A DNA stretch of 64,000 nt from assembly GCF_009931435.1 (NCBI RefSeq), contig NZ_CP043414.1, one strand, 5' to 3'. Of the stretch, positions 41,201-44,200 are shown in pieces. Position 1 is the first letter of the stretch. Each line of letters opens with the position of its first letter. Source of the DNA: Escherichia coli. GTDB lineage: Bacteria > Pseudomonadota > Gammaproteobacteria > Enterobacterales > Enterobacteriaceae. A program made the position numbers.

Positions 41201-44200
41201 AATTTTTGCTACATCGCTAATGTTCATCGTTCGCGCAACGCCTCCTGTGCTTTGTTAAAGGGTTTCAACAGATAATCCAGCACGCTTTTTTTGCCGGTGC
41301 GGATATCGACCGTCGCCACCATGCCGGGAAATATCGGAAACTGCTGTTTATGTTTATTTTCCAGATGGTTGCTGAAAGTGCGAATGTACACCCGATAGTA
41401 ATAAACATCGCGTCGCACTTCATCCTGCACGGTGTCTGGTGATATCACCGCCACTTCCCCCGGCAGGCCGCCGTAGATGGAGTAGTCGTAAGCGGTTATT
41501 TTCACCAGCGATTTTTGCCCCGGATGGATAAATGCCACATCGCGGGGGGAGATTTTTGCCTCGATCAGCAGTTGCTCATCCAGCGGCACGATGGTCATCA
41601 GTTTACCACCGGGGGCGATGACGCCGCCAACCGTGGTGACGTCAATGTCCTGAACAATGCCTCGCACCGGCGCGGTAAAGTTGAGCCGGGTGAGAGAATC
41701 TTCCCGCCCGCGGATCACCGAACGCTGGGTTTCCACTTCCGCATTGGCTTTCGCTAACTCTTCGCGCGCCTGAACGTAATATTGCGTGCGCACGTCGCTA
41801 AGTTTGTTTTCCAGTTCATTGGCCTGGCGTTGCAGGCGCAGCACTTCAACGCTGCTCGCCGCCCCCTGTTTCACCAGCGGCTGGGTCATCGCCAGTTCGC
41901 GGTTGACCAGGCTAATCCCCTGCGTCAGCCCGGTGGTGGCTTTGTTCAACCCGTCGCGGCGAGTGTTATATAACGCCGTTTCCGACTCGATAAGTTCGGG
42001 GAATTTATTCAGTTCGTCAGGAAAGACCAGCGGTTTATTGCTCACTTCTGCCCGCAGCCGCGCCGAGGTTGCCAGCGCCGCGTACAGCCGCGACATCGCT
42101 TCCTGGACGTCGGATTCCGTTTTGGTGCGGTTAAGCTGCGCCAGCGGCTGCCCCTGTTCGACAATATCGCCAACCTTCACGTCGAGATGATACAAAATCC
42201 CGCCTTCCAGCGACTGCACCACCTGTTCGCGTCCAGAAGGTTCTACCGTGCCGCTGCCGGTGGTGACTTCATCAAGCTGGAAGTACCACGCCCAGCCGAG
42301 AAAACAGAGCAGCATCACAGCGGTAACGCGCACCGCCAGCGCCGAACGTGGCAGGCGGGGTTCAGTCAGGCCACGGTTGTATTGCAGTTGTCCGTTCATG
42401 CGGCAGACCCCTTATTCTTCTCCTGCAACACCACGCGTCGCGTCGTGGGTTCGCCTTGTTCACGCAAAATAGCCTCTTTCGCGCCATCCATCACAATGCG
42501 CCCCTGATCCATCACGATTATCCTGTCAACCAGTTGCAGCATCGCCGTGCGGTGAGTGGCGATGACCAGCGTGCGATGCCCAATCCACTGTTTTAGTTGT
42601 TCAATTAAATACGCTTCCGCCATTTCGTCCAGCGAGGCGCTGGGTTCGTCGAGCAGGACGATATTGGGTTGAGAGATGAGCAGCCGCGCCAGCAGCAGCG
42701 TTTGCCGCTGGCCGCCAGAAAGACCAAATCCCCCTTCCTGAATCATGTAGTTAAGGCCGTTTTTCTGCTTCTGCACAAAGGGCAGCGCCCCGCTGAGGGT
42801 TAACGCGCGTTCGATATCTTCATCGCTGGCTTCTGGCATCCCCATGGTGAGGTTTTCCCGCAGCGAACCGAAGAACAGTCGCCCGGTCTGGCTGAGCAGC
42901 CCCATGTCGCGGCGCAGATCCGCCGGATCAAGCTGCCCGATGCTGATGTTATCCAGCAGCACCTGCCCCTGCTGGGCGATACGCATTCCGGCGAGCATTT
43001 GCAGTAGCGTTGATTTACCCGCGCCGTTGCGCCCGAGAATGGCGATTTTCTCTCCGGCCTGAATGTTGAGTTTGCCGATCGCCACATCGGCAATCTTCTC
43101 TTCTTCGTCGTAATAAAACACCGCGTTGCTGAACTGATAATTGCCGTGCAGCACTGCTTTATGCACCAGTTTGCCGTGTTCCGGCTGATCCACCGGGCGC
43201 TTCATCAGTTCATCAAGCCCGTTACGCGCCACTTTCGCCTGCTGCCAGCGCGAAAGCACGCCGGATATCTGCGACAGCGGCGCAATGGTGCGCGAAGCCA
43301 GGATCGTCGTCCCCACCAGTGCGCCGGTGGTCATGTCGCCGTTCATCACCATGAAGCAGCCCACCAACAGCACCACCACATAGACGATGGATTGCACTTC
43401 CTGCGTCCAGGTGAGCAGCAGCCCGGTGAGAAAACGTTGCTTCATACTGATGGACGAGGCCACGTCGTTGGTGTGATTCCACTGATTCTGGAAACGCTGT
43501 TCGGCACGCAGCAGTTTAATGTCTTCAATCGACTGCACGGCCTCGACAAGCGTAGCGTTGCGTACCGCTGACTCGCGCATCCCTTCGTTCGCCAGCCGCG
43601 CCAGCGGGCGTTGCACCAGCAGGCCGGGGATCACCAGCAACGGCAGCGCCAGCAAAACCACCAGCACCAGCCAGCCGCCGATCATCCACAAAATAAAAAC
43701 AAACAGCAGGAAGAACGGCAGATCCGCCACCGCGCCGATGGTGGTAGAAGTGATCAGTTCCCGCACCGATTCCAGTTCGCGGATCTGTGAGATAAACGAT
43801 CCGGTGGATTTCGATCGCACGTTATTTTTCAGCCGTAATGCGTGACCAAACACGCGATCCGAAATACGCAGATCTGCCCGCTTACCAATCACATCGGAAA
43901 GGTGCGTGCGCACCATTCGCATACAGAACTCAAACAGGATCGCCATCATCACCCCGGCGAACAGCACCCATAGCGTCGGGTAGGACTGCGCCGGAACCAC
44001 CCGGTCGTAAACCTGCATCGAGAAAATCATCGCCGCCAGCGCCAGCACGTTCGCCACCAGCGAGGCCAGCATAATATCGCCGTAGCGCCGCCAGTCTTTT
44101 AGCGAAAGATTCCAGAACCAGTTCGCCTGATACGGGCGAATATAGTCATCCACCCGCGCATCGGGAATTGCGCTGAGCGGGCGCAGCAGCGCCAGTTCGA

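Follow-up and report, generated by a model that had tools for sequence, protein, structure and literature searches.

The gene for CueR, the Cu(I)-responsive regulator of the MerR family, lies on the minus strand of the window (the whole 64,000-nucleotide stretch of contig NZ_CP043414.1 from the Escherichia coli assembly GCF_009931435.1 analyzed here), immediately downstream of a gene for a type I secretion membrane fusion protein, or periplasmic adaptor (hereinafter, the fusion gene), and its start codon overlaps the stop codon of that gene. Our analysis indicates, with a probability of roughly 0.8, that cueR is an ancestral core gene with a weak promoter of its own inside the fusion gene, and that the overlap is a by-product. 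The main evidence comes from a primary transcription start that was mapped at the homologous locus of the enterohemorrhagic E. coli (EHEC) strain EDL933 and from comparison of the cueR neighborhoods within and outside Escherichia. The feature combines known kinds of elements, namely, a 4-nt overlap, an intragenic promoter and a regulatory relic that is kept after a deletion; the relic origin of the region upstream of cueR in E. coli K-12 is a small new point, and the rest is largely answered by published data.

A probable promoter for cueR inside the fusion gene

By sequence comparison, the locus in the window is the type I secretion/adhesin locus of O-island 28 (OI-28) of EHEC O157:H7, which consists of tolC28-rtxA28-rtxB28-hlyB28-hlyD28 and promotes early adherence (Niu et al., Gut Microbes 2025, PMC12758282). 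The window and OI-28 agree in gene order, their genes are near-identical (~96% DNA identity over the fusion gene-cueR segment), and both have the ATGA junction; they differ in that the adhesin gene of EDL933 is split by an internal stop (Z0609 and Z0615), whereas the adhesin of the window is uninterrupted.

Cappable-seq data for EDL933 include a start site at 604687 on the plus strand that is assigned to EDL933_RS02800 (cueR) in all eight conditions (PMC10469882, supplementary files 6, 8 and 11), with relative read scores of 4.2-9.0 and without differential regulation (PMC10469882). The architecture in EDL933 is that of the window, with the fusion gene at 603675-604850 and cueR at 604847-605254; the start lies 160 nt before the cueR ATG, at position 1012 of the 1176-nt fusion gene. 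A primary start with a 5'-triphosphate on the sense strand inside the upstream open reading frame (ORF), which is the mark of an intragenic promoter, is present in this homologue. The promoter sequence, TACTATcgggtgt[A], includes the arrangement TACTAT-cgggtgt-[A], and the hexamer matches the consensus in 4 of the 6 positions, including the A at position 2 and the T at position 6, as expected of a -10 element. From -185 to -130, the sequences of the window, E. whittamii and Escherichia sp. E1V33 are identical to that of EDL933, and by homology the start in the window would correspond to the A at 41387 (-160), 7 nt past TACTAT. We infer that the EDL933 start operates in the window organism as well. 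The preliminary description of this DNA had left a choice between co-transcription of cueR with the secretion genes and a promoter within the 3'-terminal part of the fusion gene; the latter is supported by the primary start found in all EDL933 conditions and by the identity of the promoter region in the window. Other weak internal starts of EDL933 were reported at 604481/2 and 603894 (PMC10469882), and an antisense start is located at 605353, just downstream of cueR.

Under the proposed explanation, cueR would be transcribed mainly from this weak, constitutive promoter of the sigma-70 type, with TACTAT as the -10 element, a start at about 41387 and a leader of 160 nt, and would be translated from its own AGGAGG box.

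The overlap of cueR with the fusion gene

From 41232 to 41218, the minus strand reads GAA CGA TGA ACA TTA, with the ATG of the cueR ORF (135 amino acids) at 41227-41225 and the TGA of the fusion-gene ORF (391 amino acids) at 41226-41224. This direct reading and the ORF coordinates bear out the overlap of the two codons as ATGA that had been noticed before, and the list of ORFs and their overlaps confirms the co-directional string of adhesin, ABC transporter, membrane fusion and cueR genes. Such a stop/start overlap on one strand is a trait of coupled gene pairs. As geometry, however, the ATGA overlap is ordinary, occurring no more than by chance: consecutive long ORFs overlap in this way seven times in the 64-kb window (at 6595, 8890, 32214, 37846, 40625, 41224 and 42396). 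The only unusual aspect is the pairing of a gene of an accessory operon with a core regulator.

The junction sequence is the same in 15 independent Escherichia genomes; ATGA is kept in every Escherichia sequence compared, including the K-12 relic described below, and the junction is annotated alike in RefSeq, as a 4-nt overlap, in each island-bearing genome opened. Among 5426 complete E. coli genomes, the fusion gene-cueR segment finds matches in 5424, and a query spanning both genes is covered to at least 80% in 959. The possibility of a sequence error at the junction, which had been raised at the outset, was checked against these genomes and no error was found.

Both the cueR start and the fusion-gene stop are native because CueR is full-length on its model and the end of the fusion protein aligns with the end of HlyD. 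CueR matches the NCBIfam equivalog model NF007590 over residues 1-135 of 135 with 308.6 bits (cut-off 244) and TIGR02044 with 207.5 bits (cut-off 147.4), and is 100% identical to K-12 CueR over 135 amino acids in a tblastn comparison. In CueR, a C-terminal pair of Cys residues binds Cu(I). The fusion protein matches TIGR01843 (type_I_hlyD) with 328.1 bits (cut-off 208.65), reaching profile position 422 of 422; in alignment, its C-terminal residue is paired with that of E. coli HlyD (478 of 478; 8dck_C), and EALRER or a close variant is the C-terminus in 118 of its 120 best database homologues. The protein is 99% identical to the E. coli cluster P0001.

Origin of the arrangement in Escherichia

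Relatives of CueR were scanned in one genome per species, yielding 80 loci, among which adjacency of an adaptor gene and cueR was found only in Escherichia, namely, in E. whittamii, in Escherichia sp. E1V33 and, as a decayed copy, in one E. coli. In E. coli SCPM-O-B-8794, what is left is the tail of the ABC gene followed by an adaptor gene that has gained 2 nt close to its end. E. albertii carries a shorter and more diverged relic of ~58 nt, which retains a -10-like AATTAT and the last 21 nt. The island has thus been lost or eroded separately at least two or three times, with the cueR-proximal part kept each time.

In other genera, among them Salmonella, Citrobacter, Klebsiella and Enterobacter, cueR and copA diverge, with the CueR box and the -35 element of copA located ~10-30 nt from the cueR ATG. 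K-12 and Salmonella are homologous through GGTCAAG (the copA -35); the homology then breaks and resumes only at the cueR ATG, which places the Escherichia insertion (glsA-ybaT and the secretion locus) in the ~8 bp between these two points; this insertion seems to have replaced the old Shine-Dalgarno (SD) box and promoter of cueR. The Escherichia locus shares with the copA-cueR divergon of Salmonella, Citrobacter, Klebsiella and Enterobacter (Permina et al. 2006, PMC1526738) an orthologous cueR with ybbJ-qmcA downstream, and differs from it in that cueR of the divergon starts ~8-10 nt from the copA -35/CueR box, in the divergent orientation, and has a 5' region without homology to the Escherichia sequence.

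The closest adaptor genes outside Escherichia, those of Pseudocitrobacter (84-85% identical) and Enterobacter (70%), encode 391 amino acids each and end their operons, with convergent cho, EAL-domain or other genes next to them; the stop codon of the non-Escherichia adaptor genes is TAA or TAG, at the same codon position after EALRER. Given that adaptor genes elsewhere are terminal in their operons and that cueR elsewhere is adjacent to copA, cueR can be considered an ancestral neighbor at the operon end rather than a secretion gene. Thus, to call it the last gene of the string, as was done previously, is misleading, all the more so as cueR occupies its ancestral place by ybbJ-qmcA.

According to the scenario that we propose, the ancestral core gene cueR would have been parted from copA in Escherichia by the insertion of glsA-ybaT and of an OI-28-type locus consisting of tolC, adhesin, ABC and fusion genes. 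If this insertion ended exactly at the cueR ATG, the native stop codon of the fusion gene would now overlap the start of cueR, and all the expression signals of cueR would, for the same reason, lie within the coding sequence of the fusion gene.

The relic upstream of cueR in K-12 and promoter turnover

In K-12-type genomes, the megablast match to the fusion gene-cueR query starts at query positions 1179-1182, that is, 41322-41319 of the window, and ends at the cueR stop codon (40820); all 20 lower rows of a spread sample of the matches have these limits. The 124-bp gap between ybaT and cueR in K-12 consists of ~30 bp of ybaT-downstream sequence and a 94-bp copy of the end of the adaptor gene, which has suffered a 1-nt deletion but still ends with CGA TGA over the cueR ATG. 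The Prokaryotic Genome Annotation Pipeline (PGAP) places a frameshifted, N-terminally truncated pseudogene there, with a 4-nt overlap with cueR; the curated MG1655 record contains no such feature. The region upstream of cueR in K-12 is therefore a fossil of the fusion gene, left by a deletion of ~25 kb. The statement, in the preliminary description, that cueR of K-12 has its own upstream region holds superficially, in the sense of a 124-bp gap, but on closer inspection this gap is mostly the frameshifted relic with the same ATGA.

The published cueR starts of K-12 are at -39 (513178, score 100.3), -86 (49.2), -115 (3.7) and -21 (2.0) in Cappable-seq data (PMC4782308), and SMRT-Cappable-seq detected a monocistronic b0487 transcript from 513953, which corresponds to -39/-40 (PMC6131387); the K-12 coordinates were validated by means of the promoter sequence given by Kim et al. 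2012. GAATAT serves the -39 start and TATTAT the -86 start, the latter a box that was created at the deletion junction and is absent from the window. The monocistronic mRNA of K-12 starts inside the 94-bp relic, so cueR functions without translation of the fusion gene. The K-12-type and the island-bearing strains thus differ in the promoters used for cueR: with the deletion the -160 promoter was lost, and its role passed to the relic, whose sequence departs from that of the intact gene precisely around the -39 box.

The K-12 cueR unit (b0487; RegulonDB) is similar to that of the window in encoding an identical CueR and in having identical last 46 nt before the ATG, including AGGAGG, followed by the same ATGA; it differs in the absence of the secretion genes, of which only the frameshifted relic is present, and in its starts, to which one dataset adds a start at -292 in ybaT. 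The latter start (Kim 2012; NC_000913.2 512925) was discarded as irrelevant to the window, where ybaT is located more than 25 kb upstream. A sigma-54 chromatin immunoprecipitation sequencing site is also found in K-12 ybaT (NC_000913.2 512537), 679 bp upstream of cueR (PMC4591121); neither of these ybaT sites is in the Cappable-seq list or has a counterpart in the window.

Translation of cueR

The AGGAGG box of cueR is formed by the fusion-gene codons gcA CAG GAG Gcg (A-Q-E-A). The 21 nt before the cueR ATG are invariant in all 15 Escherichia sequences, including E. albertii, in which cueR differs from that of the window at 27 of the 61 four-fold sites (44%). The window and K-12 agree throughout the 46 nt that precede the ATG, but seven substitutions and an indel separate them in the 48 nt before these. 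At the position of the Q encoded within the box, Q is present in 4 of the 118 top homologues with an EALRER-type C-terminus, two of which (P0001 and P0002) match the window protein most closely; the other top homologues have K or R (110) or N, S or H (8) at this position, and AGGAGG is absent from the three orthologues that were read at the DNA level. These observations suggest a reshaping of the fusion-gene end in the service of cueR, and we infer use of the SD box as well as selection that shaped or kept the cueR signals.

Translationally coupled overlapping gene pairs have stop/start overlaps such as the UGAUG of trpB-trpA or the common AUGA type. The fusion gene and cueR resemble such pairs in being co-directional, with 4 nt in common and no intergenic space. 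The differences are that a primary start and a perfect SD box belong to cueR itself, where a gene dependent on coupling might have no ribosome-binding site of its own, and that cueR is expressed also where the upstream ORF is destroyed. On mRNAs with a 5' end at -160 or -39, no translation of the adaptor ORF takes place, and so cueR must initiate independently; likewise, the functional CueR of K-12, where the upstream ORF is a frameshifted relic and the mRNA starts at -39, argues, albeit indirectly, against dependence on upstream translation. Termination and reinitiation at AUGA may be possible on long read-through mRNAs, but the overlap itself would be a by-product of the tight junction and not a required coupling device. 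On folding, the mRNAs with leaders of 39 nt and 160 nt are no more structured than shuffled controls (z of +1.04 and -0.33, respectively); a small hairpin, CGTT/AACG, that would shorten the distance between the SD box and the ATG was dropped from consideration, as no special structure emerged.

Alternative readings

Several observations weigh against a dedicated promoter for cueR. A consensus sigma-70 scan of the minus strand between 40600 and 42600 found no promoter-like site, and the -35 region of the -160 promoter is poor, with ATGAAG at best; sequence consensus alone could not settle the promoter question. The start was mapped in EDL933, so that its function in the window rests on homology, and its scores are low (4-9, close to the authors' threshold of 5). 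A terminator scan of 40600-42600 found no terminator between the fusion gene and cueR, all five genes of the OI-28 operon respond to RstA (PMC12758282), and the 13-nt spacing between the SD box and the ATG is long, which leaves room for a contribution of coupling. Finally, the RNA sequencing values for the adhesin, ABC, fusion and cueR genes of EDL933, in reads per kilobase per million (RPKM), are small numbers from low-depth SOLiD data: 1, 2, 6 and 14 in LB medium, 0, 1, 4 and 27 in minimal medium, and 2, 3, 5 and 29 with nitrite (PMC4048457, Table S4). Their rise along the string fits internal starts combined with little read-through, and because the RPKM of cueR exceeds those of the upstream genes and cueR has its own AGGAGG box, read-through would account for only part of its expression. 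One alternative is that cueR is the fifth or sixth cistron of the operon, with most of its expression due to read-through from the tolC28 promoter and with translation by reinitiation at AUGA, so that the level of CueR follows the adhesin system. The OI-28 promoter upstream of tolC28 is activated by RstA and Ca2+ (PMC12758282), and the joint response of the OI-28 genes through hlyD28 to both signals implies a transcript that extends to hlyD28 and would continue into cueR; in addition, ATGA overlaps link the ABC gene to the fusion gene and the fusion gene to cueR without a terminator-like site between them, and the SD spacing is sub-optimal. Nevertheless, we consider this reading unlikely, given the independent primary start in all eight EHEC conditions, the RPKM of cueR, which exceeds the value for the fusion gene by a factor of 2-7 and the values for the ABC gene and the adhesin by a factor of at least 7, the expression of cueR in K-12 with the operon deleted, and the presence of a perfect AGGAGG. 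A genuine operon member would be transcribed only from the operon promoter and would stay linked to the operon in other taxa; the EDL933 homologue has the -160 start, and the linkage is absent outside Escherichia, that is, in Pseudocitrobacter and Enterobacter and among the 80 cueR loci. It is also fairly unlikely that induction of the adhesin operon by RstA and Ca2+ in the gut would raise cueR mRNA and, via reinitiation, CueR protein; were this the case, copper homeostasis would be wired to the adhesive state in island-bearing Escherichia, and this link would have been lost in the ~82% of E. coli in which the island is deleted and the cueR promoters are rebuilt from the relic. Under the explanation based on an own promoter, read-through from the promoter controlled by RstA and Ca2+, with possible reinitiation at AUGA, could add to the expression of cueR but would not be needed.

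A promoter inside the fusion gene could also be of the K-12 type, with GATTAT as the -10 box, a start at 41266 and a 39-nt leader. The -39 site is the strongest start of K-12, with confirmation from SMRT-Cappable-seq reads of full length; the window has the identical start region, and GATTAT matches TATAAT in 4 of the 6 positions compared with 3 of the 6 for the GAATAT of K-12. However, the EDL933 start-site lists, which include 604687, 604482 and 604956, report none at the -39 equivalent, about 604808 (PMC10469882), and the relic differs at this very place (ctgGATTAT changed to cttGAATAT, with a 1-nt deletion in the spacer), such that the K-12 promoter may have arisen or been strengthened after the deletion. 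Accordingly, the -39 promoter was downgraded as a candidate for the main promoter of the window, a role that is highly unlikely in the face of EDL933 tables that show -160. The probability that the overlap is an artefact, caused by a sequencing error or by a wrong call of the cueR start or the fusion-gene stop, is negligible: we found no point in its support, and it is contradicted by the identical junction in the 15 Escherichia genomes, by its coverage in the 959 complete genomes, by the full-length alignment of CueR to its equivalog model and by the fusion-protein C-terminus, which reaches the last residue of HlyD and is shared by nearly all top homologues.

Implications

The -160 promoter, the leader and the SD box of cueR would all be contained in the ~175 bp at the 3' end of hlyD28. 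If hlyD28 or the entire OI-28 is cleanly deleted, as in the EHEC study of 2025, the deletion would be predicted to remove or alter cueR expression unless this tail is kept, and a resulting defect in copper homeostasis could confound the adherence and colonization phenotypes of such deletions. In that study, the single-gene mutants were complemented, and no complemented ΔOI-28 strain is listed (PMC12758282); the article contains no occurrence of 'cueR' and makes no mention of the internal start site. The textbook 'intergenic' promoter region of K-12 cueR is a fossil of a secretion gene, and the 98-bp PGAP pseudogene annotated as 'hypothetical protein, frameshifted' upstream of cueR in most E. 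coli can be named an hlyD28 relic. The locus also shows promoter turnover: after the loss of 25 kb, the starts moved from -160 to -39/-86, and the deletion junction itself supplied one of the new -10 boxes. The understanding of CueR and of type I secretion is unchanged by these findings.

Other features of the locus

The coordinates of the relevant features are given in Table 1.

Table 1. Features of the cueR-fusion gene locus in the window
Feature	Position	Strand	Basis or comment
cueR, Cu(I)-responsive MerR-family regulator, 135 amino acids	40820..41227	minus	ORF list, NF007590, K-12 identity
ATGA, 4-nt overlap of cueR ATG and fusion-gene TGA	41224..41227	minus	read directly, overlap computed
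HlyD-family type I secretion membrane fusion (periplasmic adaptor) gene, hlyD28/Z0635 orthologue	41224..42399	minus	TIGR01843
Last ~95 bp of the fusion gene, kept in K-12-type genomes as a frameshifted relic upstream of cueR	41228..41322	minus	megablast, alignments, PGAP pseudogene
AGGAGG, Shine-Dalgarno box for cueR	41241..41246	minus	direct read, 13 nt before ATG
GATTAT, counterpart of the K-12 GAATAT -10 box	41272..41277	minus	start equivalent G at 41266 (-39); activity in the intact context doubtful
TACTAT, -10-like hexamer of the putative cueR promoter inside the fusion gene	41395..41400	minus	EDL933 homology
Type I secretion ABC permease/ATPase, hlyB28/Z0634 orthologue	42396..44558	minus	TIGR03375, 836 bits; ATGA overlap with fusion-gene start
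Giant adhesin ORF, 6450 amino acids, equivalent to rtxA28 and rtxB28 of EHEC	44562..63914	minus	ORF list, annotation of homologous loci, PMC12758282

The RefSeq gene order in island-bearing genomes is SiiEA adhesin, ABC permease/ATPase, HlyD-family adaptor and cueR; the homologues of the adhesin in E. coli are named 'BapA-related adhesin SiiEA' by PGAP, and the adhesin ORF of the window stops 3 nt before the start of the ABC gene. The EHEC study treats the adhesin as two RTX adhesins, rtxA28 and rtxB28 (PMC12758282). In the window the adhesin is encoded by a single unbroken ORF, whereas siiEA of EDL933 is annotated by PGAP as a pseudogene with an internal stop; the length of the gene varies by strain, with 20,775 nt in MFDS1022581 and 20,160 nt in EDL933. 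No match to the CueR operator (ACCTTCC-N7-GGAAGGT, with up to three mismatches) was found in the window, and hence there is no sign of CueR control over the secretion genes within it.

On the 3' side of cueR, a convergent ORF of 63 amino acids (40625..40816) stops 3 nt from the cueR stop codon, without a terminator-like site. The cueR stop codon (40820) marks the exact limit of the homology to K-12; in K-12, the stop codon of ybbJ abuts that of cueR, with 0 nt between them. The window has a second variable segment between cueR and ybbJ (38305-40819), which contains a YadA-family autotransporter gene (39136..40152), a lipoprotein-like ORF of 140 amino acids and ORFs of 63 and 120 amino acids; in some strains, a further gene of 1224 bp is present in the cueR-ybbJ segment.

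The identity of the window to any of the 5426 complete E. coli genomes is at most ~98% (in the core ybbP-ybbA-tesA and the adaptor-cueR segments), and its cueR differs from each of the Escherichia copies compared at 15-24 of 405 nt; the CueR protein is the same as in K-12, MFDS1022581 and E. whittamii. The source of the window is probably a divergent or cryptic lineage of Escherichia. An Rfam scan at gathering level gave no match at the cueR/fusion-gene locus; minus-strand hits were obtained at 16077-16143, 7734-7913, 35241-35318 and 29164-29252, the hit types being STnc480 small RNA, three copies of naRNA4 (CssrE/REP-type) and AgrB antisense RNA.

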